DNA of 24,820 nucleotides, taken from IMG/VR virus record IMGVR_UViG_2711768053_000009; one strand, given 5' to 3'. The stretch's first letter is position 1; each line of letters begins with the position of its first letter. The stretch is from a virus. Lineage: Duplodnaviria > Heunggongvirae > Uroviricota > Caudoviricetes. Positions 531-23,485 of this stretch are shown one piece after another. A program made the translations under genes and the position numbers. The notes under the pieces are model-generated. The model had not been told where the DNA came from and did not search any database. It saw only the letters and a list, made by a program, of their open reading frames with translations.

Positions 531-713
531 ATGAGCAGAAAACACTGGACACACAGAATGCCGCGAACGGCGGCGAAATGGGCACTGGTAGTGATACTGG
601 TGCCTTTTTTATTGGTGGGATGCGTCAGCCTGGATAAGGCGCGCCAGCTTTTCGATACGGCTTCTCAGGTCTGCCAGCTTATCGATGGCGTTCGGCAGTG
701 TCTGCAGAACTAA
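531..713 (+). CDS. Small lipoprotein (signal peptide with lipobox LVGC), lysis-associated; possible o-spanin-like or Bor-like function
   Basis: ATG at 531 with GGTG 4 nt upstream. MSRKHWTHRMPRTAAKWALVVILVPFLLVGC has a basic n-region, hydrophobic core and L-V-G-C lipobox. The predicted mature part is about 30 aa with two further Cys. The provided ORF 459..713 starts upstream inside the endolysin gene. Confidence 0.5.
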   Translation: MSRKHWTHRMPRTAAKWALVVILVPFLLVGCVSLDKARQLFDTASQVCQLIDGVRQCLQN

Positions 714-1304: not shown

Positions 1305-2099
1305 ATGAGCGAGAAATTGAAGATCGTCTATCGCCCGTTACAAAAACTGTCTCCGTATGCGCACAACGCCAGGACACACAGCCCTGAGCAGGTGGCACAA
1401 CTGGTAGAAAGCATTAAGCAATTCGGCTGGACCAATCCGGTGCTGATTGACGAAAAGGGCGAAATTATTGCTGGTCACGGTCGCGTGATGGCGGCTGAGG
1501 CGCTCAAAATGGATTCTGTTCCGGTCATTGTTCTGTCTGGCCTGACGGATGATCAGAAAAAGGCGTACCGCCTGGCAGATAATCGCCTGCCGCTCAACGC
1601 TGGCTGGGATGAAGATCTGTTACGGATGGAGCTGTCGGACCTAATCAATGCTGATTTTGATATCTCCCTGACAGGATTCAGCCCGACAGAAATTGATGAA
1701 CTGTTGACGGATGTTTTGCCCGGTACAGGAAATAATGAGGAGGAACCGTACACGACGAAAATTGATACGCCTGTTTATGAGCCGTCAGGCGATAAACCGG
1801 ATATCAGTGAACTGTACGACGATACGAAAACTCAGGAGCTGGTCAGCCGGATACGTTCGGCGTCCCTTGAGCCTGATATCGAAAAATTCCTCCTGTGCGC
1901 GGCAGAACGTCACACGGTGTTTAATTTCAGCAGAATTGCGGACTATTACGCTCACTCCCCCGCTGAAATTCAGCGCCTTTTTGAGGAGTCGGCGCTGGTG
2001 ATCATTGATTATCAGCAGGCTATTGAAAATGGATTTGTCCGGATGACGCAGCGCATGGTGGAGATCATGCATGGCGGGGAGGAGGAGGAATATGCGTGA
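1305..2099 (+). CDS. ParB-like nuclease domain (ParB/sulfiredoxin N-terminal fold) protein with uncharacterised acidic C-terminal domain
   Basis: N-terminal about 100 aa (YRPLQKLSPYAHNARTHSPEQVAQLVESIKQFGWTNPVLIDEKGEIIAGHGRVMAAEAL...) has the ParB N-domain signature including the G-x-G-R box. The stop overlaps the start of the next gene (ATGCGTGA). Confidence 0.75.
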   Translation: MSEKLKIVYRPLQKLSPYAHNARTHSPEQVAQLVESIKQFGWTNPVLIDEKGEIIAGHGRVMAAEALKMDSVPVIVLSGLTDDQKKAYRLADNRLPLNAGWDEDLLRMELSDLINADFDISLTGFSPTEIDELLTDVLPGTGNNEEEPYTTKIDTPVYEPSGDKPDISELYDDTKTQELVSRIRSASLEPDIEKFLLCAAERHTVFNFSRIADYYAHSPAEIQRLFEESALVIIDYQQAIENGFVRMTQRMVEIMHGGEEEEYA

Positions 2100-3024
2100 T
2101 GATTTTTGCGCCTTTATTCTGACTCACGGGCGTCCGGACAAAGTTCTGACTTACCGGACGTTGCGTCGTGCTGGCTATACCGGGAAAGTTTTTATCGTTG
2201 TTGATGATGAAGATAAAACCCGGCATCAGTACATAGCAGAATTTGGTGAACAGGTGCTGGTGTTTTCCAAAGCCGATATCGCCAGTCGTTTTGACGAAGC
2301 CGATAATTTCGGTGACCGCCGCTCAATTTTTTACGCCCGTAATGCCTGTTTCGACCTGGCAAAACTGGTCGGGTGTAAATACTTCATTCAGCTCGATGAT
2401 GATTATCACGAGTTCCAGTTTCGGGTGGATCGCAACTATGACCAGGCCTATTTTCCGATAAGGAAACTGGATGCGATCCTTTCTGAAATGCTGGCGTACT
2501 ACGAATCAATACCTGCTCTTTCCATCGCTATGTCGCAGGGCGGGGATTTTCTTGGTGACAATGGCGGCCATGCTTCGTGGGTGAAACGCAAGGCAATGAA
2601 CAGCTTTATCTGTTCGGTTGATCGACCGTTCTCATTCATGGGGCGCATTAACGAGGATGTGAATACGTACACGAATCTCGGTCGCTGTGGTGAATTGTTT
2701 ATGACGATCGGTGCTGTCCAGTTAGGACAGAAACAGACGCAGAAAAACAGCGGCGGAATGACCGAGCTGTATCTGGATTCCGGAACCTACGTTAAAAGTT
2801 TTTACTCCGTCATGTATGCGCCGTCGTGCGTAAAAATCTCACTGATGGGTGCCAGCCATAAACGCATTCACCATCAGGTCACCTGGAACAATGCTGCAGT
2901 AAAAATCCTTCACGAAAAATACAGGAAGAAGACACCCTGCATATCAATGGGGGTGACAAATGATTCCGTATTCGAAAGTCGAGTCTCTGGCAGCGTGCCG
3001 GATGACTGCACAACAAATCGCTGA
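2092..3024 (+). CDS. Soluble GT-A fold (family-2-like) glycosyltransferase, substrate unknown
   Basis: ATG at 2092 preceded by GGAGGAGGAGG. Translation has beta1 CAFILTHGRPD, then VFIVVDDEDKT (the hhhVDD motif of GT2 enzymes, residues about 34-44) and YFIQLDDDYHEF (DXD motif, residues about 98-107) at the spacing seen in SpsA-like GT2 enzymes. No C-terminal transmembrane helices, so unlike GtrB. The provided ORF 2071..3024 starts 7 codons upstream. Confidence 0.6.
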   Translation: MRDDFCAFILTHGRPDKVLTYRTLRRAGYTGKVFIVVDDEDKTRHQYIAEFGEQVLVFSKADIASRFDEADNFGDRRSIFYARNACFDLAKLVGCKYFIQLDDDYHEFQFRVDRNYDQAYFPIRKLDAILSEMLAYYESIPALSIAMSQGGDFLGDNGGHASWVKRKAMNSFICSVDRPFSFMGRINEDVNTYTNLGRCGELFMTIGAVQLGQKQTQKNSGGMTELYLDSGTYVKSFYSVMYAPSCVKISLMGASHKRIHHQVTWNNAAVKILHEKYRKKTPCISMGVTNDSVFESRVSGSVPDDCTTNR

Positions 3025-5643: not shown

Positions 5644-7080
5644 ATGGCTGAGATCGAGATTTCTGTAAATCTCAGTTCTTCGCTGATGCGCATTCTTGAG
5701 GCTGAAGAAATTCAGCCGGGAACCGACATTGGCTATGAACTGTGTAAACTGCTGTGGCAGTACCATCCGCTGGGCGGGAAACTTGTCGAAAAACCCATAC
5801 TTATGGCGATGTGTAAGCCGCGCCAGTACAACGTGGAGACAGACCCTGACGAGCGGGTTGTGCGGCGTTTCCAGGAGGTGTGGGAGCGCATGAAGGTGAA
5901 CGAGAAGATTAAAAATCTGTTTTTCCTGTCTCGTTGCTACGGTGCTGCAGCGATCGGCGTGGGCACCGACAGTGTTTCATGTCGTGAACCGCTTCCGACG
6001 TTCGGACTGACAGAAGATGACGTGTATATCAACGCGTGGGACCCGTTGAACGCTTCCGGTTCGATGGTGACTGACCAGAACCCCAACAGCCCGTTTTTCC
6101 AGGAAGCCAATAAAAAACTGAAGATTGGCGGAAAAGACTGGCATCCGTCACGCACACTGAAAATCTTCAACGGCACACCGATTTATCTGGAGTTTCAGAG
6201 TTCATCGTTCGGATTCACCGGGCGAAGCGTGTTTCAGCGCGTTCTTTATTCCCTGAAATCCTATATCAATACGATGGAGGCGAATGATCTCGTCAGCCAG
6301 AAGGCAGGCGTACTGGTGGCTAAAGTTGTGCAGAACGGTTCGAAAATTGACGGGATCATGGCTGCTGCCACGGGGCGTAAAAGGGAAAACGTGAAAGCCG
6401 CCAAAAATAAAGGCGTGTTGAGTATTGGAAAAGACGAAGACGTAAGTTCACTGAACCTGCAAAACATCGACGGGGCGCTGAATACATCCCGCGACAACAT
6501 CATTGCTGATATTGCCGCCGGGAGTGACGTTCCGGCCATTATTATCAAGGAAGAAGCATTCAGTAACGGATTCGGTGAAGGTAAGGAGGACTCGAAAGCC
6601 ATCAGCCAGTATATCGATGGTGTACGCCAGCAGATTGAACCTGTGATGGATTATTTCGAACGCCTGGTGCAGTACATCGCCTGGAACGAGGAATTTTATC
6701 AGTCGCTGAAAAATGATTACCCGGACATCATAACCGACGACTATAAAACCACGTTTTACCAGTGGCGACGTGAATTTACCGCGACGTGGCAGGAGCTGGT
6801 GGAGGAGTCGCCGGACAAACGCCGGGAAAGCGACAGTAAAGTGATTCAACAGGCGATAGCACTTTTCTCTGCCGTGTCGCCACAGGTTGATCCTGAAAAC
6901 CGCGCCGCCCTCGCTGAATGGCTGGCAAGCCTTGTTAATGCCACGCAAACCTATGGCGAAGCTCCACTCATCATTGATGTGGATGCGCTGGCGAATTATG
7001 AACCACCGAAGCAGGAGACGCCTGATGGCAATTTCCAGCCGGGCGGTGAGGAAGAAGAAACGGATCAGGACTCTGTATGA
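5644..7080 (+). CDS. Portal protein
   Basis: 478-aa ORF directly after the large terminase with an acidic C-terminal tail; size and position are typical of portal proteins. No specific motif verified. Confidence 0.65.
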   Translation: MAEIEISVNLSSSLMRILEAEEIQPGTDIGYELCKLLWQYHPLGGKLVEKPILMAMCKPRQYNVETDPDERVVRRFQEVWERMKVNEKIKNLFFLSRCYGAAAIGVGTDSVSCREPLPTFGLTEDDVYINAWDPLNASGSMVTDQNPNSPFFQEANKKLKIGGKDWHPSRTLKIFNGTPIYLEFQSSSFGFTGRSVFQRVLYSLKSYINTMEANDLVSQKAGVLVAKVVQNGSKIDGIMAAATGRKRENVKAAKNKGVLSIGKDEDVSSLNLQNIDGALNTSRDNIIADIAAGSDVPAIIIKEEAFSNGFGEGKEDSKAISQYIDGVRQQIEPVMDYFERLVQYIAWNEEFYQSLKNDYPDIITDDYKTTFYQWRREFTATWQELVEESPDKRRESDSKVIQQAIALFSAVSPQVDPENRAALAEWLASLVNATQTYGEAPLIIDVDALANYEPPKQETPDGNFQPGGEEEETDQDSV

Positions 7081-7858
7081 GGTTCTGACGGATGCCGTTA
7101 ACTACTACGTAAATCACGGGTGGGATAGCGAAAAATCATTGCTCGAATGGTGCCGGAAACTCCGTGTAGCCGCTCAGCGAGAAACCCCTGATGATACCGT
7201 AGCCAGAAAACATCTCACCGCTATCTACAGCCGTCTTGTCATCGACGGCGGGGCATTACGGGATCAGCCTCCTGACGGCCCTAAAAAAATCACTGTTGAA
7301 AAACTGAAACCTGAGTTTCGCAAGGAACTCGACAGGCGAATTTTCGCCAGTGCCAACCTGATAAAACTCAACCGCGAACAGGCTATCGAGAAAACCATAC
7401 AGCGTTTTCAGGGATGGGTTACGTCCATTCCGCCTGACGGGGTGAGCGAAATTGATCGCCGGGAAGTGAAGTCCGGTTTTCAGAAGTCCGTGAAGGATAT
7501 GGATTTTATCAGTCGCCGGGTGGCAATTGACCAGGGACATAAGCTGGCGAGCAACGTTAAGTATCTGCTGGCTGTTCAGAGTGGTGCGATTGCTCTGCGC
7601 TGGCATTCTAACTGGCGGCGTCCGGGCTACAAATACCGACAGGACCACAAAGAGCGCGACGAGAAAATTTATCTCCTCCGCGATTCGTGGGCGCTGGAGC
7701 AGGGGCTGATTAAGCCCGTATATGGTTTTTATGACGAAATCACTGCTGCCGGGGAGGAGGTTTATTGCAGTTGCGATGCTCTGCCGATCTACGCCCCTCA
7801 GAAACTACCCGACGAATTTTTAACGGAGAAGGGCAAACGTGAGTTTAACCGAGCTTGA
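7025..7858 (+). CDS. Putative head morphogenesis protein (Mu F / SPP1 gp7 position)
   Basis: ATG at 7025 with AGGAGA 6 nt upstream, overlapping the portal 3' end. Call is by position only. The provided ORF 6887..7858 begins further upstream inside the portal gene. Confidence 0.4.
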   Translation: MAISSRAVRKKKRIRTLYEVLTDAVNYYVNHGWDSEKSLLEWCRKLRVAAQRETPDDTVARKHLTAIYSRLVIDGGALRDQPPDGPKKITVEKLKPEFRKELDRRIFASANLIKLNREQAIEKTIQRFQGWVTSIPPDGVSEIDRREVKSGFQKSVKDMDFISRRVAIDQGHKLASNVKYLLAVQSGAIALRWHSNWRRPGYKYRQDHKERDEKIYLLRDSWALEQGLIKPVYGFYDEITAAGEEVYCSCDALPIYAPQKLPDEFLTEKGKREFNRA

Positions 7859-9161
7859 AGTGGCAGAACGCATCAGGGACGGAACCGTACCGTCTCCGGT
7901 GAAATTCTCCAACATGTGGCTGGTGAATTTGCGCATAACCGGAACCGGGCTTGCCTATCGCGCCGGGCTGAAAGAGCACGTCTGGCGTGATCCAAAGCTC
8001 TATCTGAACGAGGAGTTTTTAAGGCGATGCAATGGCCTTCCAGTTATCGCAAACCATCCTGACGACGCAGTTCTGACGGAGGAGGATTTTAAATCGCGGA
8101 TCGTCGGCAGTGTCATGCTGCCGTATATCCGGGGTGACGAGGTATGGGCGGTGTGCCGCGTTTACCTCCAGAGCATTGTTGAAGAAATCACTGAGGGGGA
8201 TGTTTCGACAAGTCCGTCGGTGGTGTTCAACAGCACATCAGGAAATGTGGAAGTACAGGAAGGTGACACCAATTTTTTAATCGAAGGCGTTCCTTTCCTT
8301 GTTGATCACATCGCCCTGGTGACGAAAGACCACGGCTCGCTGGGCGTGTGGGATAAAGACCGGATCCCCGCAGGGGTTGAAGTGACAAACACAGGTGAAA
8401 TCGAGATGGAAAAAGAAGAACTCCAGGCCCTGTTACAGGGGGTTGTGAGCGATGCCCTGCAAGGCATTAATCAGAAAATCGATGGTGTCGTTACGCGCAT
8501 GGACTCACTGGAACAGCGGGACAAAGCGCGGGCGGACGCCGAAGCTCAGGCGAAAAAAGAGGCCGAAGAAAAGGCCAAAGCCGATGAAGCAGCAGAGGAA
8601 CAGCGTAAAGCTGATGAAGCTGCGGCAAAGGAGGCGGAAGAAAAAGCCAAAGCTGACGAGGCGGCAGCTAAAGACGCTGAGGAGAAAGCAAAGGCTGATT
8701 CCGAAGCGGAAGAACAGCGTAAGGCTGACGAGGAGGCAGAAAAAGAACGCAATGACTCTGCCCTGGCAGAAGCACAGGCAAAAGCCGACTCCGCATTCAG
8801 TGCCTGCGGTAAAAACGCGCCAGCACCGTTTTCTGGTGAAAATGCGCTGGACTACCGCAAGCGTGCGCTAATCGCTATGCAGAAACACTCTCCGGCACAT
8901 AAGGACGTCAATATTCGCGCGATTGCGGATTCTGCAACGCTGGCTGTGCTTGAGGACGCAATTTTCAGTGCCGCCCGTCAGTCCATCGAAAAAGAAATGA
9001 TGAGTACGCAGGGGCAACTGCATAAACGTATCCGCAACGATGAAGCCGGACGTCGCATTACTGAATATCAGGGCGATCCGAACGTCTGGCTGAGTGCTTT
9101 CAAAATTCCGGGGCGTCGTCTGGCAAAAATTAACACTCAAGGGAGCCTGAACAATGGCTGA
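7839..9161 (+). CDS. Head scaffolding protein with Ala/Glu/Lys-rich coiled-coil repeats (possibly a protease-scaffold fusion as in Mu gpI)
   Basis: GTG start with GGAGAAGGG upstream. The central region is (A/E/K)-rich heptad-like repeats (AEEKAKADEAAEEQRKADEAAAKEAEEKAKADEAA...). Sits between the portal/morphogenesis genes and the capsid gene. Confidence 0.5.
   Translation: MSLTELEVAERIRDGTVPSPVKFSNMWLVNLRITGTGLAYRAGLKEHVWRDPKLYLNEEFLRRCNGLPVIANHPDDAVLTEEDFKSRIVGSVMLPYIRGDEVWAVCRVYLQSIVEEITEGDVSTSPSVVFNSTSGNVEVQEGDTNFLIEGVPFLVDHIALVTKDHGSLGVWDKDRIPAGVEVTNTGEIEMEKEELQALLQGVVSDALQGINQKIDGVVTRMDSLEQRDKARADAEAQAKKEAEEKAKADEAAEEQRKADEAAAKEAEEKAKADEAAAKDAEEKAKADSEAEEQRKADEEAEKERNDSALAEAQAKADSAFSACGKNAPAPFSGENALDYRKRALIAMQKHSPAHKDVNIRAIADSATLAVLEDAIFSAARQSIEKEMMSTQGQLHKRIRNDEAGRRITEYQGDPNVWLSAFKIPGRRLAKINTQGSLNNG
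8535..8750 (+). repeat. Imperfect tandem DNA repeats encoding the KADEAA/EEKAKAD coiled-coil segment of the scaffold protein
   Basis: Recurrent gaagaaaaagccaaagctgacgaggcggca-like units are visible in the sequence; this is low-complexity coding sequence. Confidence 0.6.
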
Positions 9162-12219: not shown

Positions 12220-13150
12220 GGAATTAGCCGAACAGCACAGTTCGCAGCTCTCGTCCGTTCTTAAATCCGCAGTTGAAACCATCTCGTCAGACCAGGAAAT
12301 CACGTTCAGGCTCTATGTCCGGCAGGTTCTGCCGCTGGATGGCTTTGTCTATTGGGTTAATGCGGAAATCATCAGTTGCGATGAACTGTGTCGCCTGAAT
12401 ATTGAGTCACCAACTCGTCTGAAAATCAAAGGCAGTCTGCATCGTCAGGTTATTGCGATTCAGGACGAGTCTGTCTCGAAGGATGTGAACAACATTATTT
12501 TCACGCCTGTTCAGCAGGTTGATGATTTTAATGTGGAAAATCCCGATGCGATCTATCTCGGTGAGTATGGCGGCGTCCAGTTTGCTTTTTCACGAATGGA
12601 GAGCCGTTATCAGCAGTCGGGTATTTTTCATTATCGCGGTATGGCGATTTTACCAACCATGCGCTCTCAGATTATCGACTGCGAGGAGGATATCAGCGAC
12701 GAGCAGATCATCTCCAACAGCATCCCGATCTGGCTGCAAATGAAAGATGCCGCGACCGTGTATCCGTCTTACCTGGTACCGCAGAACCTTCGTCCTCCGT
12801 ATATCGCAGTGGATGTTCGCAACAGTATTCCTTTGCAGGTGGCTCCTGTTGTTTTCGGCGGTGAGCGGTTTCAGCTCGTTCAGGATTCGGTTCGCCTGAC
12901 GCTTTACGGATTCAGCAACAAAATGGCGCTGGATCTTGTCGACTCGGTGGTGAACAGGGCGCTGGAGGAGGAAAAGTTTGGCGTAACCAATATTCCGGTG
13001 GTTCAGGACGCAAAGTCGGGACAGGTTGAAATCAACGCTCTGGCGAAGAAAAAGATTGTCGATTTTGACGTGAATTACTACCAGAGCACCGCCCGGGAAA
13101 TGTCCCGGCAGTTGATTGAAAAAGTTATTTGTAAATATGAGGTTAAATAA
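12206..13150 (+). CDS. Hypothetical virion or tail completion protein
   Basis: Intact 314-aa ORF overlapping its neighbours at both ends in the structural operon. Confidence 0.5.
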   Translation: MPSLEELAEQHSSQLSSVLKSAVETISSDQEITFRLYVRQVLPLDGFVYWVNAEIISCDELCRLNIESPTRLKIKGSLHRQVIAIQDESVSKDVNNIIFTPVQQVDDFNVENPDAIYLGEYGGVQFAFSRMESRYQQSGIFHYRGMAILPTMRSQIIDCEEDISDEQIISNSIPIWLQMKDAATVYPSYLVPQNLRPPYIAVDVRNSIPLQVAPVVFGGERFQLVQDSVRLTLYGFSNKMALDLVDSVVNRALEEEKFGVTNIPVVQDAKSGQVEINALAKKKIVDFDVNYYQSTAREMSRQLIEKVICKYEVK

Positions 13151-14487
13151 TGGGATTTAATATCGTCACGGTGAATGTGTCCCAGACCATCGGGGCCATT
13201 CCCTCGAATTTGCAGCAGATGTCTGCGGTTCTCTCGTTTGGTTCCACGACTCATGAGCCGGGAAAACCCGTATTACTCACCCGTAATCAGGATATTAACG
13301 AACTGGTTAAAAATCCGATTGCTGGCTTGTCGGCGGCTGCCGCAGGAAGATCTGCGGCAAGCGTCACCGTTACGATGACGCTTCCGGAAGGGAGCAACAT
13401 CCGACGCGAAAACAGTTCTGAGGTGAAAATTGTTGTTTCCGGGTGTTCGCCCGACGCGTGGAATGGCGAATATACTGCTACCGTCACGGATGAAAAAACA
13501 CTGACCTGGACTATTACTGATTCTCAGCTTTCCGGTTCTCCAGTGACGCTGGGGCAGTTTTCTATTGCTGGCAGTGAAAATCTGGTGACGGCAGTAAACA
13601 CGTTTTTTGCCCAGGGAAATTCAGTCGGGATTTACCTGCTGGAGCTGGGAGTACAGAAAGGCGGGGTCAGTAAGGAAATCGCTGCACTGAAAGCTTATAT
13701 GGAAGATCCGCTCCTGCGTTTTTATGCGTATCTGGTGCCGCAGCCGTGGGATGGTGACGCAGAATTTATCAGTCTGGCAAAACTCCACACCGCCAACGAA
13801 GCGATGCAGTATTTCTTCGTGCTGACGAAAACGCCGGACGACACGAATTACGTTTCGCCTTATGCCGGTATTAAGTCGGTTATTGCAACGGCGGATGATA
13901 CGTACCCGGCGACAAACGCGGCAGCAGCCGTAATGTGGAACTATGTTTCCGCATCACCTTCAGAAATCAACAAGGTGCCGCCGATGGCATTTCGCTATCT
14001 GCAGGCGGTAAACGCCCACAAGGGCAAAAATTCCATTCTGGCCACGATGACAAAGCAGAATATTAACTACGTCGATACGGGTGCTGAGGGTGGAATTTCC
14101 AACACGATTCTGGTGAAAGGCGTTACCAGTGACGGTAACGATATGACGTACTGGTATTCCGTAGACTGGGTGCAGATTAACGTCGATATGCAGCTCGCCA
14201 ACACGGTGATCAACGGCAGCAATAACCCAATTAACCCGCTTTACTACAACCAGGACGGAATCGACCGTCTACAGCAGGTCGCACAGGCGGTGTTCAATAC
14301 GGGCGTATCTTACGGCCTGGTCAACGGCCAGCCTGTCGTCGATGCAGTGCCTTTCCGCCAGTATATCAACACTAATCCGAATGATTACGGTATCGGGCGT
14401 TATGCAGGCCTTTCGGCCTCCTATACGCCGATGCGCGGATTTGTCGAAATCATTTTTAACATCAATGTGACAATGCAGCTTTCGTGA
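13150..14487 (+). CDS. Tail sheath protein (putative)
   Basis: 445-aa ORF immediately upstream of a tube-sized gene, a chaperone pair and the tape measure gene; P2/Mu-like baseplate genes lie downstream. Call is by synteny and size. Confidence 0.5.
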   Translation: MGFNIVTVNVSQTIGAIPSNLQQMSAVLSFGSTTHEPGKPVLLTRNQDINELVKNPIAGLSAAAAGRSAASVTVTMTLPEGSNIRRENSSEVKIVVSGCSPDAWNGEYTATVTDEKTLTWTITDSQLSGSPVTLGQFSIAGSENLVTAVNTFFAQGNSVGIYLLELGVQKGGVSKEIAALKAYMEDPLLRFYAYLVPQPWDGDAEFISLAKLHTANEAMQYFFVLTKTPDDTNYVSPYAGIKSVIATADDTYPATNAAAAVMWNYVSASPSEINKVPPMAFRYLQAVNAHKGKNSILATMTKQNINYVDTGAEGGISNTILVKGVTSDGNDMTYWYSVDWVQINVDMQLANTVINGSNNPINPLYYNQDGIDRLQQVAQAVFNTGVSYGLVNGQPVVDAVPFRQYINTNPNDYGIGRYAGLSASYTPMRGFVEIIFNINVTMQLS

Positions 14488-15556: not shown

Positions 15557-15621
15557 ATGTAAAAACGGCAGCTCAGTTTCGTGAGCTGCTCAAATTCAAA
15601 AATCCCGCAGGAGTATTGTGA
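15328..15621 (+). CDS. -1 frame C-terminal extension of the tail assembly chaperone (GT-like fusion product)
   Basis: 97-codon ORF in the -1 frame overlapping the chaperone 3' half and ending at the tape measure start. Probably expressed only as a frameshift fusion. Confidence 0.5.
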   Translation: MRLVDKHTGADGTDDAGSQWNVEQSHFILESYGMDCFIADIEACRQFWRDGEHVISDILDYSAGAGFRDICADSGLNVKTAAQFRELLKFKNPAGVL

Positions 15622-17609
15622 TGGCTGGTAACCAGATGCCAGTTCTGACGCTGGACGTTAATGAAGAACATCTTAAGCGACTTGAGGCGATATTTGAAAA
15701 GTATCGCAACGGGCTGATGATTGGCCCTGCCGGTACGCCTCTTAAAATACCTTCAAATACAGGTCCGGGAGGTGGCGTCCGGCAGACAACTACAGGCAGA
15801 GAAGCCAATCAGGCTCCCAGGAAACCATCTTCACCCGCGCCAGTTCCGGCTGCGTCCAGTCATGGACGTTTACGGGATGAAAAAGGGCGCTTTGTTGGAA
15901 GCGGGAAAACACCTGATTCGCTGGTGAGCAACTATAAAGGTCGCGGCGAAACGATGTTTGATAAGTACCTCAGCGGGCTGGGTAAAAACGCTCAGGGGAC
16001 GCTGAAAACTTACAAACAGATCAATTCAACGCTTAAAACGACTAATTCCCGGTTAAAAAGCCTGTTTAAAACCACGGTTTCGTGGGGGACGAAAATAACT
16101 GCAATAGGGGTTGCGGGGCCGTTTGGCTACGGCTATATGGCAAGTAAAGTCGCGGCACAGTATAGCGTAGCTCAGGGGTTAGGGATGGAAACCGCCCAAA
16201 TGCAGGCCGCACGTGCCACCTATTCGCCATATTTTTCTGGCACAGAAGAGCTGGTTCAGCATCTGGCGAACGCACAGAAAAACCCGAACGATCCAAACTA
16301 TGCTGGCCTGGTTAGTCTTGGAATTGATCCGCGAGATGGTGCTGCAAAGAATCTGCCCAAACTTATGAGCGCGCTTGCATCTCTCGTTAAGCAATATAAA
16401 GGTTCGGGACTTACTCAGGGGATTCTCAACGGACAAGGGCTTGGATTTGTTGATGTCGCGACAACTAACCAGATGGAAGCGAATCTGGACAAGATCCCCC
16501 AACTGAATGAGAAATTTGCAGCAAATACCCGGTTACTCGGCGCTTACCTCACGCCAGCTATGCAGTCAGGTTATCAGGACACGGTGAGTAACCTGATGGT
16601 AAATGGAAACAGAATATCAAATTCCTGGTATGCAGCTCTCGCCAGATATAACCCACTAATCAGAGGTGCATCAGATGGACTGACATCCAATATTGAAGGT
16701 TTTCTGAATGGTGGAAATTTTCAGAAAATTCTCACTGAGGCTGGAGAAGGGCTGGAGAAACTTGGTAAGTGGCTAAATAGTGAACAGTTTAAAAATGATC
16801 TTGATGATTTTTCTCTGGCGGTGAGCCGTATTGCAAAAGCAATATGGTCAGCTATCAAATGGATCGGCGGGGAAGATAAATATCTCCCCGGAACCGGAGT
16901 TGGTGCTGAACAGGCAGATCCAGTTCTTGTGGCATTTGGGGATAAATATCTCGGCGGTGCGTTGCCGGGAGCAAACCCGATGACAAATCAGTATACGGGT
17001 GAGTTTTATAAACAGGATGATGTATATAAAAATTACCGTATGCCTAATGATTTAAAGAGAAATATTCAGAACTTTGTAGAGCAAGCCAATAATACTTATC
17101 GACTTCCTAAAAATATGATGTCTGCAATTGCAGAAGCCGAATCATCGTGGAATCCCCTAGCGAAAGGAAGCCCCGATGAAAATGGCAATTATGCTAAGGG
17201 GTTGTGGCAATTCTGGGATAGCACCGCAAAACAGTATGGTCTGGTGGGAGATGATGTTTATGACCCAAATAAATCCACTCTTGCGGCTGGTCGCTTTTTA
17301 AATGATCTGAATCGGCGTTATAAAGGCGATGTGGCAAAAATGCTTACGGCATATAACGGAGGTCGTATTGATAGAGATGGAAATCTAAGTTTGAGAATGG
17401 AGACTGTAAAATATTTAATTAAATTATTGCCTCAGATACAGGGAGCCTTGGATCAACACCCTGGTATTATGAATCAGCTAAGAAATGCCAAAGATAACCT
17501 TCAGGGTGCTGGCAAAAATGCCCGCGCAATAATTGAGCTTCAGGTGCGACAATCGCCAGGTTCCGACATACTGGCACAACTCGCCGGAACGCAACAAATA
17601 CCGGGGTAA
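15621..17609 (+). CDS. Tail tape measure protein with C-terminal lytic transglycosylase (SLT) domain
   Basis: Follows the chaperone pair. SLT motifs AEAESSWNP ... GLWQF ... AYNGG are present near the C-terminus. ATG at 15621 with AGGAG 8 nt upstream; the provided ORF starts at GTG 15618. Confidence 0.65.
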   Translation: MAGNQMPVLTLDVNEEHLKRLEAIFEKYRNGLMIGPAGTPLKIPSNTGPGGGVRQTTTGREANQAPRKPSSPAPVPAASSHGRLRDEKGRFVGSGKTPDSLVSNYKGRGETMFDKYLSGLGKNAQGTLKTYKQINSTLKTTNSRLKSLFKTTVSWGTKITAIGVAGPFGYGYMASKVAAQYSVAQGLGMETAQMQAARATYSPYFSGTEELVQHLANAQKNPNDPNYAGLVSLGIDPRDGAAKNLPKLMSALASLVKQYKGSGLTQGILNGQGLGFVDVATTNQMEANLDKIPQLNEKFAANTRLLGAYLTPAMQSGYQDTVSNLMVNGNRISNSWYAALARYNPLIRGASDGLTSNIEGFLNGGNFQKILTEAGEGLEKLGKWLNSEQFKNDLDDFSLAVSRIAKAIWSAIKWIGGEDKYLPGTGVGAEQADPVLVAFGDKYLGGALPGANPMTNQYTGEFYKQDDVYKNYRMPNDLKRNIQNFVEQANNTYRLPKNMMSAIAEAESSWNPLAKGSPDENGNYAKGLWQFWDSTAKQYGLVGDDVYDPNKSTLAAGRFLNDLNRRYKGDVAKMLTAYNGGRIDRDGNLSLRMETVKYLIKLLPQIQGALDQHPGIMNQLRNAKDNLQGAGKNARAIIELQVRQSPGSDILAQLAGTQQIPG

Positions 17610-18281: not shown

Positions 18282-18544
18282 CAACGTTAATTCCTTTTAA
18301 ACCAGACGGGCGAGGTCCGTTTCAGTTCACGGCCAGAATCGGAGAATATGAAGCATTCGCCCGCGTTCCGTTTAATCTGTACGCAAACCGTTACTATCTG
18401 GAACTGAAAGACAGTTCTGGCAAGGTCATTGTATATACGCCTCTGATTGCTTCCCCTGATGGTTACGATATTAATCTGGCGCTGCCTTGCTCGCCGGGGA
18501 AACTCATTTTTCGCGAAAGTACGAATCAGTTTGAGGTTTCGTAA
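18278..18544 (+). CDS. Small tail protein (hypothetical)
   Basis: ATGA overlap with the previous gene and TAATG overlap with the next. Confidence 0.4.
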   Translation: MTTLIPFKPDGRGPFQFTARIGEYEAFARVPFNLYANRYYLELKDSSGKVIVYTPLIASPDGYDINLALPCSPGKLIFRESTNQFEVS

Positions 18545-19551
18545 TGCGTTATTACCGACTGGAAATCATTAACCCTAAAACAGGCAAGCCGCCAGTGGAT
18601 AGCAACGGAAATACCATTGGTCCGTTTGATACCAGCAGAACGCCGGGATGCGGGCTACATGTTGAATTTGATGTGGAGGTGGCTGGGCTTGATGTAGTGA
18701 ATTCAGGAACGATGCTCACAATATACGGTTTGCCTATCGACATGCTGAAGCAAAGCGTGAGTTTGCAGGGGTGTCTGGTCCGTATGAAAGCGGGCTTTGT
18801 TGAGGGATTGCCTTTGGCAAATCCACAGCAACAGGGTGAGGTAATTTATGGCGAAATTTATCTGGCCTATGCCAACTGGATCGGCACGAACCAGACCTTA
18901 AACCTGGTAATAAATCCAACCGTACGCAAAACAGATGATGGTAAACCGTTCTCTATCGAGGGAGAGGGGCTTAAAGGGGAAAAGGTTAGTGATGTAATCT
19001 CCCGTGCGTTGCAAAAGGCATTTCCGAATAAATTGATCGACTGCACAGTCAGTGACAGTCTGGTTTTACCAGAGCCGTGGAAGGGAACCTACGACAATAT
19101 TGGGTCGTTGGCGATGGTAGTCCGTAGTGCTTCAATCGCAATGATGCGTAATGAAAGGTATAGCGGAGTCGCTATCAGTATTCTTTCCGACAGGATACGA
19201 ATCTACGATAACGTATCGGCAAATTGGGGTGAGCCAAAAACAATTCATGCCCATGAACTGGTCGGGCAGCCGACATGGATAGCGCCGTTTACCGTCAGTT
19301 TCAAATGCCCCATGAGGGGCGACATAAGATGTGGTGATGTGATCAAATTGCCAGAGGGGCTTTATTCTGGCTCTGCGTCGATCGTGATGGCTAATACAAC
19401 GGCACCCAGCGTTATCGCAAAAAATTCGACCACGTTTACCGGGAAATTTCTTGTGATATCGGTCAGACATATTGGTTCGTATCTGACAGCCGATGGCGAT
19501 GCCTGGGTGACGGTATTCGAGGCATATGCTGAGAACTGGGCGAGGGTGTAA
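18544..19551 (+). CDS. Baseplate hub-like protein (putative)
   Basis: 335-aa ORF immediately upstream of a gpV/gp45-like spike gene; call by synteny with Mu/P2-type baseplates. Confidence 0.4.
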   Translation: MRYYRLEIINPKTGKPPVDSNGNTIGPFDTSRTPGCGLHVEFDVEVAGLDVVNSGTMLTIYGLPIDMLKQSVSLQGCLVRMKAGFVEGLPLANPQQQGEVIYGEIYLAYANWIGTNQTLNLVINPTVRKTDDGKPFSIEGEGLKGEKVSDVISRALQKAFPNKLIDCTVSDSLVLPEPWKGTYDNIGSLAMVVRSASIAMMRNERYSGVAISILSDRIRIYDNVSANWGEPKTIHAHELVGQPTWIAPFTVSFKCPMRGDIRCGDVIKLPEGLYSGSASIVMANTTAPSVIAKNSTTFTGKFLVISVRHIGSYLTADGDAWVTVFEAYAENWARV

Positions 19552-20264
19552 TGTCAAACGCTCAAAAAATACCGTTTCTCCGAACGCTGTCAGAGATGAT
19601 GACCAGTTCTGGTAACCAGCAAGCCGAGCTTAAAGGCCGTGAATTGCCCTGCCATGTTGTCGATGTCAGCGGGCAGATAGTGACAGTTCAGTTTGATATG
19701 CTGCCGGAGGGGATCAACTTTCCGCAGATAACAATCCCTGTCGCCACATTCCCGTATATTCGTTACCCGATACAGCCGGGCGATCGAGGAGTAACAATTG
19801 CCGCTGATGTATCACTGCGCGGTGTGTCTGGATTGGGAACCGGTATGGCGACGCTCTCTTACTCGATGTCGCTCACTCCACTGTTTTTCGTGCCACTGGC
19901 AAACAAGGACTGGTCCGACGAAGATCCGCAAAAAATAGTTTTGTACGGTCCGGATGGCGCGATCCTCAAAACAGAGGACGGCAGTAGCTCGGTAACGGTG
20001 GCACCGGAAGAAATCAGGCTAAAGTCGAAAGCTGTTTACCTCGAGGCCGAAGATATCTTCATGAACGGGAAAATTCATCTCAACGGTCCAATCGTACAGG
20101 ACAAAGAACAAATGAAGGATACAACCGCTTCGCTGATTGGCCCTCTCAAGGTCGAGAAAGATGCAGTTATCAACGGCGTGAGCGCCAGCGGCCACAGCCA
20201 CGATGTGACTGGCGTTCAAAGCGGCGGCAGCACGATCACGTCGAAGAAACCAAATCCGGGTTAA
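19551..20264 (+). CDS. Baseplate spike / assembly protein V-like (Mu gp45-like)
   Basis: The N-terminal segment ELKGRELPCHVVDVSGQIVTVQFDMLPEGINFPQITIPVATFPYIRYPIQPGDRGV resembles the OB-fold region of gp45/gpV spikes. Followed by a terminator. Confidence 0.5.
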   Translation: MSNAQKIPFLRTLSEMMTSSGNQQAELKGRELPCHVVDVSGQIVTVQFDMLPEGINFPQITIPVATFPYIRYPIQPGDRGVTIAADVSLRGVSGLGTGMATLSYSMSLTPLFFVPLANKDWSDEDPQKIVLYGPDGAILKTEDGSSSVTVAPEEIRLKSKAVYLEAEDIFMNGKIHLNGPIVQDKEQMKDTTASLIGPLKVEKDAVINGVSASGHSHDVTGVQSGGSTITSKKPNPG

Positions 20265-20300
20265 TACCGGCTCACTTTAAATTACATCCATAAAGCGAAA

Positions 20301-20332
20301 GTCCCGGCTGCTGCAACAGTTCGGGGCTTTTT
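20301..20332 (+). terminator. Rho-independent terminator after the spike gene
   Basis: Hairpin GTCCCGGCTG / CAGTTCGGGGC (imperfect, with one bulge and G-U pairs) followed by TTTTT. Confidence 0.5.
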
Positions 20333-20479
20333 GTATCAACAGAACAGTATTTGAAATGGCATGGAGATTACTCATGCAGCCAAATTCTAGCGCACCTAAA
20401 GATAAATTTGGAGACGATTTGATGATTAAGGCTGAGACCACTCCGCAAGGAGCAATAAGGCTGCGAGGATAATCGCGGT

Positions 20480-20686
20480 ATGCCGAGGGATTCGTCACAT
20501 ACTTACGCCTGTTGCCTGGATCATTTGTACTGCATTAGTGGCGGGTACATTGATTTACCTGAAAAACTGATAAAGGAGTTACGAGAAATGGGCGAAAGAT
20601 TACCCAACTGGAAATTCCTGTTGATATGGTGTGTGTTTTTCTTATTTGGACTATCCGCTTTGATTCAGGCGATCCGGTGGCGTTAA
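20480..20686 (+). CDS. Small membrane protein, paralog 1 (core 32 aa from ATG 20588; N-terminal extent uncertain)
   Basis: Core MGERLPNWKFLLIWCVFFLFGLSALIQAIRWR has a hydrophobic helix; AAGGAG lies 9 nt upstream of ATG 20588. Paralogous to the gene at 20806..20952. Confidence 0.5.
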   Translation: MPRDSSHTYACCLDHLYCISGGYIDLPEKLIKELREMGERLPNWKFLLIWCVFFLFGLSALIQAIRWR

Positions 20687-20805
20687 TTTTTACATAACTT
20701 TACATATGGCAATGAAAAAACAACAAATTACTTCATGGATGATTTGCTACGTGAACTCAAGCATAGAATGACATGGTGTTAAGTAATTGTTACAAAGGGA
20801 TTGGT

Positions 20806-20952
20806 ATGAAGTTTCTTTTCATTGTTTATAAATTACTAGTTGAGATTCGAGTTATGGGCGAGAAATTTCCCAATTGGAAGTTTTTACTTATCTGGTTGGT
20901 CTTTCTGATTCTGGCGTCTGGATATTTTGTTGGGCAGATCCGATGGTGGTGA
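20806..20952 (+). CDS. Small membrane protein, paralog 2 (48 aa; alternative start ATG 20854 gives 32 aa)
   Basis: MKFLFIVYKLLVEIRVMGEKFPNWKFLLIWLVFLILASGYFVGQIRWW; AAGGGA lies 5 nt upstream of ATG 20806. Versus paralog 1, the conserved N-terminal half differs mostly by synonymous codon changes, which indicates purifying selection. Confidence 0.5.
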   Translation: MKFLFIVYKLLVEIRVMGEKFPNWKFLLIWLVFLILASGYFVGQIRWW

Positions 20953-20959
20953 GGGCACG

Positions 20960-21307
20960 ATGAGGACATGGGGCCGCGTCACCGACGTGAACGGCAATAA
21001 AAAATGGGTTGCTGTAGAATCTGACGCCAACGGTGATTTCTCCTACGGCTGGCTGACGACGCTCATTCAGACGTTAAAGCTGGGGGTGGGGGAGTCGCCG
21101 TTTTATGCGAATTACGGCATTCCAGCACAGCAGTGCATCGTGCAGCAGATTTACCCGGACTACTATGTGAACATGGTTCAGCAACAGTTTGCCGGGTATT
21201 TTGCATCACTGGCAATTTCAAGGGTAGATGGGGCTGAGAACCCCACCTATAACATCGATGTTGTGTTTTTTAATGGGACCAGTTACCGGATGCAGGTTCC
21301 GGTGTGA
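20960..21307 (+). CDS. Baseplate protein, gp25/W-like (Mu gp46 position), putative
   Basis: ATG at 20960 with GGTGAGGG upstream; about 115 aa; lies between the spike and J-like genes. The provided ORF 20927..21307 starts upstream inside paralog 2. Confidence 0.45.
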
Positions 21308-21657
21308 GGCAAATTTTCGGGCATCAGTTGGGCCAGTGGCGTGTTAAGAAGTTCATCGCGTGGCATGACAATCCATCCACTTTTGCGTAGTAAGTGAATT
21401 GCCCATTCTGTGGTGATAACTGAGCCTGATTTGTGGTGCTCAATGTGGGTAACCGAGCCGTTTCTGACGCGCATGATGATGTCAACATTCAGAGGGGATT
21501 GTGTGCTGGTGGTATCTTCGCGCAGCTTCTTCTCGCACTCGATGAAGTATCGGCGGATCTGGCGTCCTTTTTCGTTGCGCTCGACCATTGCCAGTTCTTT
21601 GGCGGTGTCCAGGGTGAGGTGGTAGTCCTTGCGGCGGCGGCCTGGAGTTTTCGCCAA
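21283..21657 (-). CDS. KilAC-domain (phage antirepressor C-terminal domain) protein, probably a truncated remnant
   Basis: Translation ...[42 protein letters not shown] matches the conserved KilAC antirepressor C-domain. The ORF has no ATG before residue 24 (TTG is the only possible start), and an in-frame stop lies 11 codons upstream at 21691-21693. The 3' end overlaps the convergent gp25-like gene. Confidence 0.4.
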
Positions 21658-21669
21658 ATTTGGCGAAAA
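21648..21669. repeat. Perfect 22-bp palindrome TTTTCGCCAAATTTGGCGAAAA
   Basis: Read directly from the sequence; the reverse complement is identical. It lies at the boundary between GC-rich phage sequence and the AT-rich island and overlaps the first codons of the KilAC ORF. Confidence 0.85.
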
Positions 21670-21697
21670 TAGAATGTAGTCTAAAAAAGTCTAACAA

Positions 21698-22126
21698 CTA
21701 CTTATTTTCAGACACACATTTTTCAAAATTTTTTATCGAGTCATTGAAAACTGAATTCATTATCTCATAAGTTTTATGATCTATCTTTTTGTCTAGATAA
21801 TCTTTATTGTTTTTCTTTATTTTTTCCTTAGTATCAGTAATGGCTTTTTTACAAATTTGATAATTTATCTGCTGATCGTTTAAACCGCCTCCATTGACAA
21901 TTAGAGAAATAGCTGTATTCATGTCTTGTATATTGTAGGAATAGTGTAATGTGTCATTGGTTGGATGGCTGGGATTATCATAATAAACATTACCGAATTT
22001 CATTAACATTATTCCCGATTTCCCATAAACAGAATCAGATAAGTATGCGGCATTCATATTTCCGGCAGTAAAATTATCAGTATGACATATAAAACGCCGA
22101 CCATATTGAAGCTGTAATTTATGCAT
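21698..22126 (-). CDS. AT-rich cargo ORF encoding the mature part of a putative secreted protein (unknown function)
   Basis: 142-codon ORF in sequence that is visibly far more AT-rich than its surroundings. No convincing RBS at its own ATG. It is in frame with the upstream signal-peptide ORF 22178..22237, separated by a TAA. Confidence 0.45.
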   Translation of the reverse strand: MHKLQLQYGRRFICHTDNFTAGNMNAAYLSDSVYGKSGIMLMKFGNVYYDNPSHPTNDTLHYSYNIQDMNTAISLIVNGGGLNDQQINYQICKKAITDTKEKIKKNNKDYLDKKIDHKTYEIMNSVFNDSIKNFEKCVSENK

Positions 22127-22177
22127 AGCATCGTTGCAGGCAGCTCTTATTAGACGGGTATGATTATTGTCTTCTTC

Positions 22178-22237
22178 TTAAGCGCATACTGAAAATGAAA
22201 GAGTGGATGCAATTAGCAATGAAATTAATTTCTTCAT
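22178..22237 (-). other. Orphan signal-peptide ORF (MKKLISLLIASTLSFSVCA-stop), in frame with the downstream AT-rich ORF
   Basis: Minus-strand ATG at 22237-22235 with AAGGG 6 nt upstream. The 19 codons encode a typical Sec signal peptide ending V-C-A, followed immediately by TAA (plus-strand tta at 22178-22180). 17 further sense codons then lead to the ATG at 22126 in the same frame. Confidence 0.6.
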
Positions 22238-22258
22238 AAATTACCCTTGAGATTAACT

Positions 22259-23485
22259 ATGTCAGAAATACCAATTACTATGACCAGTGCGGGTGCGCAG
22301 CCTACGCCACCCAATGATTTGCTTGCGAATCTTATCACCAGGGTTGCTGAAAAAGTACCTGGATATACAGCCAACCTTCCGGCGGGACTTATTACAGACC
22401 TTGCCAGCACGGCAGTCGGGGCGGTGGCATTAATAGATCAGGCGCGGGTTGATCTTATTAACTCCGTAAGCCCATACGGCGCGAATATTCCGTTACTGAT
22501 GCAACTCGGAAACATTTATGGAGCACAGAAGGGATTAAGTACAAATACGGCGGTATACGTGGTGTTTGAGGCGTTGCCGGGATTTGGTATCCCTAAAGGA
22601 TTTGTGGTTGGAGACGGTAACTACCAGTATGCGGTTTCCCGCGATACGGTGGTGCCGGAAAGTGGGCAGACTGAGCCAGTCTACTGTGTGGCCACAACGT
22701 CAGGCTCATGGGCTGTACCGGAAGGGACCGTGACGCAGGTCATTACATCAGTACCCAAAGACCAGCCTGTAAAATGCACGAACCTTACCGCAGGAATGCC
22801 CGGTCAGGAGGCGAAGACGTGGGCATCTTACCGTGCCGAAGTCATGGAGTCCGGCATGTTTGGTGTGCAGGGAACACCGGATTGCTTTAAAGCGATGCTC
22901 AAATCAGTAAGCGGTGTGCGAGAAAACCTGATTTCTTTCCGGCAGTCGTCGCTGGGGAAATGGGTTGCGGTTGTTGGTGGCGGTGATCCGTATGACGTGG
23001 CTTATGCGATTTACAAATCTGTACCGGATATTTCGAAACTGACCAACGATGTAACCAATCCATCCGGTGCGGCAGTGGAAAAACGCACGGTTTCAATAAC
23101 CGTTTCGCCGGACGTTTATCAGGTGCCGTTCGTTATCCCGTCATCACAAAACGTCATGGTGCTAATCACCTGGAACACGGTGTCTGATGATTATGTTGAC
23201 CCGGCGGGTATTGCTATGGCTGTGCAGCAAAACGTTGCTGATTACATCAATTCTATTGAAGTCGGTCACCCGATAAATCTGTTGCGAATCCAGGATATTT
23301 TTACCAGCTCCGTAAAATTGCTGGTTGATGCGACGTTGATCTCAACAATCAGTGTGAGCATTGGCATTAACGGCCATATTGTTCTTCCGGCAAAAGACAC
23401 AAGCCTGGTTTATGGCGATACCTATTCCTATTTTTCGACGGTGGCATCACAGGTTCAGGTCAATAAGTATGCAATATCTGACTGA
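22259..23485 (+). CDS. Baseplate J-like protein (Mu gp47 / P2 gpJ position)
   Basis: About 408 aa; lies between the gp25-like and gpI-like genes. ATG at 22259; the provided ORF starts at TTG 22247. Confidence 0.5.
   Translation: MSEIPITMTSAGAQPTPPNDLLANLITRVAEKVPGYTANLPAGLITDLASTAVGAVALIDQARVDLINSVSPYGANIPLLMQLGNIYGAQKGLSTNTAVYVVFEALPGFGIPKGFVVGDGNYQYAVSRDTVVPESGQTEPVYCVATTSGSWAVPEGTVTQVITSVPKDQPVKCTNLTAGMPGQEAKTWASYRAEVMESGMFGVQGTPDCFKAMLKSVSGVRENLISFRQSSLGKWVAVVGGGDPYDVAYAIYKSVPDISKLTNDVTNPSGAAVEKRTVSITVSPDVYQVPFVIPSSQNVMVLITWNTVSDDYVDPAGIAMAVQQNVADYINSIEVGHPINLLRIQDIFTSSVKLLVDATLISTISVSIGINGHIVLPAKDTSLVYGDTYSYFSTVASQVQVNKYAISD

Follow-up and report, generated by a model that had tools for sequence, protein, structure and literature searches.

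Two sites of variable accessory-gene content flank a 348-bp baseplate gene in an Escherichia coli prophage

Two gaps around a small baseplate gene

Why is a phage baseplate operon opened twice, on either side of one 348-bp gene? The question is raised by a 24,820-nt viral sequence (IMG/VR record IMGVR_UViG_2711768053_000009; Caudoviricetes), hereafter the window, in which a 115-amino-acid (aa) gene at the gp25/W (sheath-initiator) position (20960-21307, plus strand) stands apart from both of its structural neighbors. To its left, 695 bp (20265-20959; site A) separate it from a 237-aa spike-like baseplate gene (19551-20264, plus strand). To its right, 951 bp (21308-22258; site B) separate it from a Baseplate_J-like wedge gene, here J (22259-23485, plus strand; PF04865 at 32 bits against a cutoff of 21.1; phrog_6 baseplate wedge subunit). 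A preliminary description of the window had placed gaps of about 700 and 950 bp at these coordinates, correctly, and had read them as foreign cargo brought by two independent insertions. Our analysis indicates that the region is very probably a pair of moron-type accessory-gene hotspots bracketing the sheath-initiator-position gene in the late (baseplate) operon.

Our comparison covered 112 loci in which the 115-aa protein has a homolog, taken from two deposited phages, E. coli genomes, GTDB species representatives, IMG/VR contigs and assemblies. Homologs of the spike, 115-aa and J genes were placed in each locus by tblastn; where a flanking gene could not be placed, the denominator for occupancy is smaller than the number of loci. 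Among the 62 loci with at least 88% identity in the 115-aa protein (E. coli and Yersinia similis), site A is occupied in 61/61 and site B in 60/61, and none has both sites empty. At 70-88% identity (32 loci from Erwinia, Pantoea, Serratia, Pseudescherichia and others), occupancy is 0/32 at site A and 22/32 at site B, with both empty in 10. Below 70% (18 loci from Arsenophonus, Budvicia, Burkholderiales and metagenome-assembled genomes), it is 3/18 and 3/16, with both empty in 11. Overall, both junctions are closed, ranging from an overlap to ~60 bp, in 21 of the 112 loci, which is the presence and absence between otherwise adjacent genes that characterizes a moron.

In prophages of Arsenophonus nasoniae, the spike gene overlaps a 114-aa gene by 4 nt and J begins 10 nt after it, indicating that the contiguous V-W-J order is the baseline and that both gaps are additions. 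Further empty-site loci include a metagenome contig (L009) and loci L013, L095, L097 and L105. At site A, the 32 relatives at 70-88% identity all have a spacing between an overlap and 17 bp; at site B, the spacing in empty-site relatives is -4 to ~60 bp. The premise of the preliminary description, that the three genes are normally contiguous, is therefore borne out, and the alignment to related prophages that it proposed recovered empty-site versions as well as insertion boundaries. The borders of the inserts are stop and start codons.

Within the closest clade, site A measures 242-1528 bp and site B 58-3135 bp, and gene contents are unrelated from locus to locus; its 62 loci represent no fewer than 12 arrangements of site A and 13 of site B. 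Arrangements at the two sites assort independently. For instance, a cargo gene with an HSDR_N domain at site B pairs with either of two unrelated cassettes at site A. This free combination shows that the sites turn over independently. The C-terminus of the 115-aa protein does not depend on cargo type and exists in three variants that are one residue apart. The proposed cargo hotspot is thus supported by varied and unrelated contents among close relatives. The claim of two independent insertions stands as far as independent variation goes, but not as two single events; the sites are rather hotspots that have long existed and have changed their content repeatedly. Site B is old and occurs widely; apart from three distant singletons, site A is found only in the E. 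coli/Yersinia clade.

Base composition departs from that of the flanks in part of the region. The flanking genes have a GC content of 0.50-0.52, compared with 0.41 for the gap at site A (lowest 300-nt window, 0.35). At site B, a remnant of an antirepressor gene (Ant) is at 0.53 and an AT-rich gene, here B11, at 0.31 (minimum 0.27). A deviant composition, a further mark of morons, is accordingly seen for the site-A gap and B11 and not for the Ant remnant. The GC profile suggested by the preliminary description thus sets the site-A gap and B11 apart, and its account of the second gap as AT-rich minus-strand cargo is right about the strand of both genes and about B11, but not about the composition of the Ant remnant.

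Could the two segments instead be ancestral structural sequence of the baseplate? Some small gene is constantly present at site A in the E. coli clade, and this is the only observation that favors such a reading. Against it stand the 21 empty-site loci and the unrelated contents of close relatives, and none of the cargo proteins has virion-protein homology among its Pfam, PHROG and NCBIfam family matches. We consider that the segments are almost certainly not ancestral; conserved structural sequence with virion homology, the outcome named beforehand as fatal to the foreign-cargo reading, was looked for and did not appear.

The 115-aa gene itself (phrog_7986) lies between spike and J in every relative. 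Its family comprises 701 clusters at 90% identity, with a Pfam domain in 0 of the 120 clusters listed, and a profile search of 1.84 billion representatives returned only 177 relatives at 50% identity; the family is apparently self-contained. Neither the 115-aa protein nor 48 diverse family members matched the Pfam family GPW_gp25 (PF04965), and two profiles of the family found no match among PDB sequences. An AlphaFold2 model (predicted local distance difference test, pLDDT, of 76) has T4 gp25 as its top Foldseek match in the PDB, although weakly (E 0.1), and fold matches in BFVD that are named GpW/Gp25 are likewise weak (E 0.02-0.1). The family carries a nearly invariant G-E-S-P-F-x-x-x-x-G segment at residues 44-53. 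It resembles what we take to be the GER...P.FG motif of gp25 proteins, a resemblance that serves as a lead and not as a test. The earlier label "gp25-like" is thus upheld by gene position and a weak fold similarity and not by sequence match. We read the protein as one that probably works like a sheath initiator and as a possible member of the gp25 family.

The prophage in the window is of the E. coli W type. Over 19400-22600 it matches 12 complete E. coli genomes, that of E. coli W among them, at 99.3-99.7% identity, and the recurrence of the same arrangement in these genomes shows that the layout is not an artefact. The lineage is a temperate contractile-tailed phage belonging with the Rac-SA53-like prophages of E. 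coli. Upstream of the spike-like gene are a tail sheath gene (13150-14487; phrog_205, E 5e-53), a tape measure gene with an SLT domain (15618-17609), two conserved unknown genes and a baseplate hub gene (18544-19551; phrog_196). The spike-like gene has a weak, below-cutoff match to TIGR01644 phage_P2_V (E 1.6e-4), its homolog in contig L009 has a weak match to Pfam Apex, and the Prokaryotic Genome Annotation Pipeline (PGAP) names it "phage baseplate protein"; its identity across E. coli relatives is 90-100%. J starts at ATG 22259 according to PGAP, the earliest possible start being TTG 22247, and is followed by a gene for a 208-aa protein and then by tail fibers. At the left end of the window, an endolysin gene is followed by a gene for a 60-aa spanin-like lipoprotein with the lipobox LVGC (together 133-713), and a ParB-like nuclease gene and a glucosyltransferase-like gene (1305-3024) precede the small terminase gene. 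This left end may be another accessory region.

Three database records stand out. NZ_CP026085.1 and NZ_CM135829.1, both labelled "DH5alpha", carry the E. coli W-type prophage segment with a score equal to that of E. coli W. Such a segment is unexpected in a K-12 derivative, and the two genomes may be mislabelled strains. PP818812.1 (L002), deposited as "Actinobacillus phage vB_Apl-pPE4", is ~95% identical in DNA to E. coli prophages over the tail region; given this match, its assignment to a Pasteurellaceae host is surprising.

Small membrane-protein genes at site A

The constant left border of site A is a GC-rich hairpin followed by a T-run (20295-20334, plus strand), which resembles a terminator. 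It was missed by a consensus terminator scan and found by direct folding (-18.9 kcal/mol, z -2.75; -23.1 kcal/mol, z -4.4 for the Rac-SA53 version). The hairpin comes directly after the spike stop codon and is kept in all six relatives that were aligned.

Downstream of the hairpin, the window holds three small genes rather than the two peptide genes first reported, all on the plus strand. The first, A5 (20356-20570), encodes a 71-aa single-pass membrane protein and is a pseudogene here, the loss of 1 nt near 20454 having shifted its frame; E. coli W and loci L057 and L035 have it intact. Between E. coli W and L035, A5 has 28 synonymous-only and 2 nonsynonymous codon differences, an excess which shows that it is a real gene. 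A tblastn search with the 71-aa protein gave no credible match in phages. The raw list of open reading frames (ORFs) has a 68-aa ORF from ATG 20480, whose N-terminal half is an artefact of the A5 frameshift. The second gene, A2' (20588-20686; phrog_6632, E 1.4e-16), has a 32-aa core and AAGGAG 8 nt upstream, with TTG 20525 as a possible alternative start. It is a divergent paralog of the third, A2 (20806-20952; phrog_6632, E 3.9e-21), a 48-aa small membrane-protein gene whose stop codon lies 7 nt before the ATG of the 115-aa gene. This second copy is the one orthologous to A2 in Rac-SA53 and other relatives. Together the two form the sole significant direct repeat of the region (D1), they have 10 synonymous-only codon differences in 33 codons, and both look intact. 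The A2', A2 and A5 proteins each have one strongly hydrophobic stretch of 19 residues.

Close relatives have the same left border, spike stop codon and hairpin, followed by differing sets of genes drawn from five small-gene families. The commonest arrangements are A2 alone (26 loci; gap of 242-251 bp) and A3, an unrelated small membrane protein, alone (17 loci). Others are A5 alone (4 loci), A3'+A5 (6 loci), A5+A2'+A2 (4 loci, the window included) and A3'+A5+A2'+A2 (1 locus), and arrangements with a 51-aa protein (A12) and a Rha regulator (Pfam Phage_pRha) reach 1528 bp.

The A2 gene is also found well away from baseplates. By tblastn, A2 has homologs at 62-69% identity in Shiga toxin (Stx)-converting and other lambdoid phages. 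In H-19B and CP-1639 it lies between the endolysin gene R and Rz, ending 1 nt before Rz, and in UM146 and MS8324 between the lysozyme gene and the Rz "lysis protein". The endolysin-Rz cassettes of H-19B and CP-1639 have a homologous hairpin and Shine-Dalgarno region upstream of A2, so the homology of the cassette reaches the DNA level. Of 5426 complete E. coli genomes, 889 have the 214-bp A2 cassette at a coverage of at least 80%, at as many as six places in a single genome; it usually goes unannotated, and copies include L001:4895-5108 (Rac-SA53), L113:2930-3138 (H-19B) and L114 and L115:2001-2213. Between Rac-SA53 and H-19B, A2 has 11 synonymous and 4 conservative nonsynonymous codon differences, which again marks it as a real gene. 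Baseplate and lysis-cassette copies are ~81% identical in DNA, indicating that the transfer was not recent. The simplest history, judged from these sequences, would have the A2 cassette entering the spike/115-aa junction once, in an ancestor of the E. coli/Yersinia clade. A weak similarity to the A2 peptide at window 556-639 was dismissed, since the segment belongs to the unrelated 60-aa lipoprotein gene at the left end.

The lysis connection raises the possibility that the site-A membrane proteins are phage-function genes, for example lysis-timing or endolysin/spanin-associated ones, recruited for co-expression with the baseplate genes. The A2 family is indeed commonest inside lysis cassettes, directly ahead of Rz, site A is filled in 61/61 close relatives, and the small genes directly adjoin the downstream start codon and evolve under purifying selection. 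However, A2 is replaced outright in at least 21 loci, by A3 alone in 17 and by A5 alone in 4, and all 32 loci at 70-88% identity have the same tail module with site A empty. The window, moreover, has lysis genes of its own, the endolysin gene at 133-516 and the lipoprotein gene after it. We therefore regard phage function as quite unlikely to account for site A.

Equally doubtful, though worth stating, is a more specific scenario that covers both sites. Very small single-pass membrane proteins of 44-71 aa, from at least four unrelated families, could form a stackable array at site A, founded by a ~200-bp mobile mini-cassette that docks exactly before the start codon of the next gene. The peptides would then be undescribed phage membrane effectors for superinfection exclusion or lysis control, and a ~20-nt junction at site B, described below, would act as an "expression socket" for swapped secreted-protein genes.

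Cargo and borders of site B

In the window, site B holds two minus-strand genes. The first is the remnant of an AntA/AntB antirepressor gene (21283-21657), a 5'-truncated ORF of 124 aa that shares 25 nt with the 3' end of the 115-aa gene. It corresponds to residues 54-185 of the 185-aa Ant of Rac-SA53, ~53 N-terminal residues being gone. By Pfam profile and by alignment to Rac-SA53 there is no complete N-terminal AntA domain: the Pfam AntA match is limited to profile positions 44-68 of 68, while the PHROG match is strong (phrog_14211, E 2e-46). In E. coli W, PGAP calls Ant a pseudogene with its N-terminus missing. Truncation falls at residue 54 in the window and at residues 26 and 36 in other relatives. 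Ant genes of Stx phages match the Ant segment at 91-94% identity. Exactly at the junction between truncated Ant and B11 lies a perfect 22-nt palindrome, TTTTCGCCAAATTTGGCGAAAA (21648-21669), with no T-run after it on either strand.

The 280 bp upstream of the full-length ant gene in Rac-SA53 (L001) contain a perfect palindrome, GTGGTTGCA-N5-TGCAACCAC (~6130-6160, minus strand), a possible operator. This region is missing from the window because Ant is truncated there. No LexA box (CTGT-N8-ACAG) occurs in the window, which leaves an antirepressor module under SOS control unsupported here.

The second gene, B11 (21698-22237), encodes a 179-aa protein with the signal peptide MKKLISLLI.STLSFSVCA. 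A nonsense codon interrupts it in the window, where codon 20 (22178-22180) reads TAA; in E. coli W, the codon is CAA and the gene is intact (WP_000733802.1). The B11 family is narrow, with 6 clusters whose named members are all from E. coli. B11 had no tblastn match in 50,697 phage records and no Pfam or PADLOC match. Its structure model (pLDDT 60, from 5 sequences) was too poor and was not used for a fold search. For B11 and the small proteins together, Pfam, NCBIfam and PADLOC gave nothing; a lone NCBIfam match, at 18.9 bits against a cutoff of 150, was disregarded.

Three of the five cargo genes of the window (A5, Ant and B11) are therefore inactivated, and part of this cargo is decaying. 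Might both inserts be non-functional debris of a decaying prophage? The A5 frameshift, the 5' truncation of Ant and the nonsense codon in B11 all fit such a view. However, both A2 paralogs are intact, with many synonymous differences, A5 and B11 are intact in the otherwise 99.3% identical locus of E. coli W, and the flanking structural genes of the window are all intact open reading frames. On balance, debris is an unlikely explanation for the inserts.

Relatives have other cargo at site B, in all ~25 plausible families among 66 ORF clusters, many of the clusters being antisense artefacts. The commonest in E. coli is a plus-strand gene for a 386-aa protein with an HSDR_N nuclease domain (Pfam E 9e-14; 23 loci, including L004:3112-4272 and L005:3145-4305). 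HSDR_N is the N-terminal, nuclease-type domain of type I restriction R subunits. The protein has no PADLOC match and is thus a candidate stand-alone defence gene. Elsewhere, Ant is accompanied by one or two unrelated signal-peptide proteins (B9, B11, B15), by a lipoprotein or a membrane protein, or by an LprI-annotated protein. Four loci (L014, L071, L079 and L083) have a homolog of the YafO toxin (Pfam E 6e-24) beside a 190-219-aa protein, possibly a toxin-antitoxin pair. More distant clades have further unrelated lipoproteins, secreted proteins and Ant variants. In L111, site B (6375-8363) contains a 271-aa Ant, a 92-aa Arc/Mnt-like ribbon-helix-helix protein and a secreted protein.

The right border of site B has two forms that match the orientation of the cargo. 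Form 1 is a terminator hairpin, AACCCGC..GCGGGTTTTTTT, followed by GGAG and the start of J. It is found where the site is empty (L013, L095, L097, L105 and L091) or holds plus-strand cargo (L005, L057, L099 and L014), whose genes thus have the resident hairpin downstream. Form 2, found with minus-strand cargo, is a ~20-nt spacer, CAT-AAATTAyCCTT....-ATG (22238-22258 in the window), which recurs across clades before unrelated signal-peptide genes. A minus-strand promoter inside the 5' end of J would explain this spacer, but none was found.

Losses can be recognized as well. The "empty" site B of Yersinia similis (L010:6349-6407) is 58 bp long and keeps the start and ~13 codons of a minus-strand cargo gene, a 5' stump that makes it a deletion scar and not a site that was never occupied. 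Together with the Ant truncations, this stump indicates that deletions as well as gains shape site B.

Origin of the cargo and comparison with known systems

How did the cargo arrive? We examined whether a dedicated mobile element, such as an insertion sequence or transposon, a homing endonuclease or an integron-like cassette system, delivered it. In favor of such an element, site A has a conserved hairpin at its left border and small genes stacked in an unvarying order, and the commonest site-B cargo of relatives has a nuclease domain. However, no gene for a transposase, integrase or HNH/homing endonuclease was found in or beside either site in the window and the relatives examined. Terminal inverted or direct repeats and target-site duplications were likewise absent, the search returning just the A2 paralogs and chance-level matches, and there is a single hairpin per array, not one per cassette. 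Delivery by a dedicated element is thus highly improbable.

We favor the hotspot pair and propose the following course of events. Spike, 115-aa and J genes would have been contiguous in the ancestor. Site A was probably opened in an ancestor of the E. coli/Yersinia clade by a ~245-bp cassette consisting of hairpin, Shine-Dalgarno sequence and a gene for a 45-aa single-pass membrane protein, and would later have gained or exchanged other tiny membrane-protein genes and the Rha regulator downstream of the hairpin. Site B may have begun as a short spacer with a terminator hairpin that repeatedly took up unrelated genes, plus-strand cargo being inserted upstream of the hairpin and minus-strand cargo replacing it with the ~20-nt divergent spacer beside the J start codon. 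Exchange between prophages resident in the same host is probably how the cargo moves. Among E. coli relatives, the structural genes on either side are 90-100% identical, and homologous recombination in these highly conserved genes could swap whole cassettes; some of the cargo is common to lambdoid prophages at 81-94% DNA identity, which are frequent co-residents in E. coli. New gains and truncation scars would come from illegitimate recombination, or from deletion, at the borders of genes. Both sites coincide with hairpins, which are natural breaks in translational coupling, and this may be why insertions are tolerated there.

The cargo comprises small inner-membrane proteins, signal-peptide (periplasmic) proteins, lipoproteins, antirepressors, the HSDR_N protein and the YafO toxin module. 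Proteins of such types occur among characterised morons that act in superinfection exclusion or defence, such as HK97 gp15 and JBD26 Tab (PMC10884400). By analogy, the cargo most likely serves lysogenic conversion, superinfection exclusion or phage-phage conflict and not virion structure.

Several observations count against the moron-type interpretation. A sigma-70 scan of 19500-22600 gave 2 matches, compared with 5.5 expected by chance, none of them placed to drive the cargo, and inspection by eye found no convincing minus-strand promoter inside the 5' end of J. A textbook moron has its hairpin downstream of the genes, whereas that of site A precedes them. PADLOC gave 0 matches for nine cargo proteins from the window and relatives, so the proposed functions are inferred from protein type alone. 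Site A is never empty within the E. coli clade, and a role of the small proteins that benefits the phage is possible. Finally, the loci came from pattern-seeded searches with at most 80 matches listed for each, and the frequencies should not be taken as an unbiased census.

Prophage positions that are fixed but hypervariable have been a productive source of new anti-phage and lysogenic-conversion genes. Sites A and B, only 348 bp apart and with borders defined to the nucleotide, together hold ~30 uncharacterised protein families, an unusually rich collection of accessory genes. Among these, the 45-aa membrane protein is widespread in E. coli (~16% of genomes) and mostly unannotated, the 71-aa membrane protein is under strong purifying selection, and the HSDR_N protein also deserves attention. 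Mildly unusual features are the placement of two hotspots around a single 348-bp gene, the stacked micro-genes and a founding cassette common to lambdoid lysis cassettes. There are consequences for annotation, too: site A has no PGAP annotation in E. coli W, the 68-aa ORF of the window is a product of frameshift, three of the window's cargo genes are pseudogenes, and the family of the "gp25-like" gene has no Pfam model.

A literature search found "Rac-SA53" in one unrelated paper and no description of this hotspot pair. Moron hotspots in late operons are known; the present pair appears undescribed in the literature searched. Morons are, at least in the sources that cite the original account, genes present in some related phages and absent from others, between adjacent late genes (Juhala et al. 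2000, cited in PMC10884400 and bioRxiv 10.1101/2024.10.15.618418). They typically encode membrane or envelope proteins for superinfection exclusion or defence (PMC10884400; bioRxiv 10.1101/2024.10.15.618418), and HK97 gp15 and JBD26 Tab are late-operon morons that protect against other phages (PMC10884400). Like HK97 gp15, lambda lom and bor, and JBD26 Tab, the cargo described here lies between conserved late genes, is variably present and is often of deviant composition. Unlike known morons, the two sites bracket one 348-bp structural gene, the hairpin of site A precedes its genes, and no promoter of the cargo's own was detected.

P2-like phages have hotspots at Z/fun, beside baseplate and tail genes, and at old/tin, as far as the citing source relates (Rousset et al. 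2022, cited in 10.1101/2024.10.15.618418). There, as here, hypervariable cargo occupies fixed places in a P2/Mu-type contractile-tail genome and is exchanged among related prophages. Sites A and B differ in lying inside the V-W-J block itself and in having different cargo with no PADLOC defence match.

The immI region of P22, with ant and arc/mnt embedded among late genes, offers another parallel. It likewise places an antirepressor in the late/tail region, and the Arc/Mnt-like ribbon-helix-helix gene of L111 would extend the analogy. In the window, by contrast, Ant is a 5'-truncated remnant without a regulator gene.

The 45-aa ORF between endolysin and Rz in lambdoid prophages (Stx, Qin-like) belongs to the A2 family and has the same layout of hairpin, Shine-Dalgarno sequence and an ORF ending at the start of the next gene. 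The lambdoid ORF sits in a lysis cassette, whereas A2 at site A sits in a baseplate operon.

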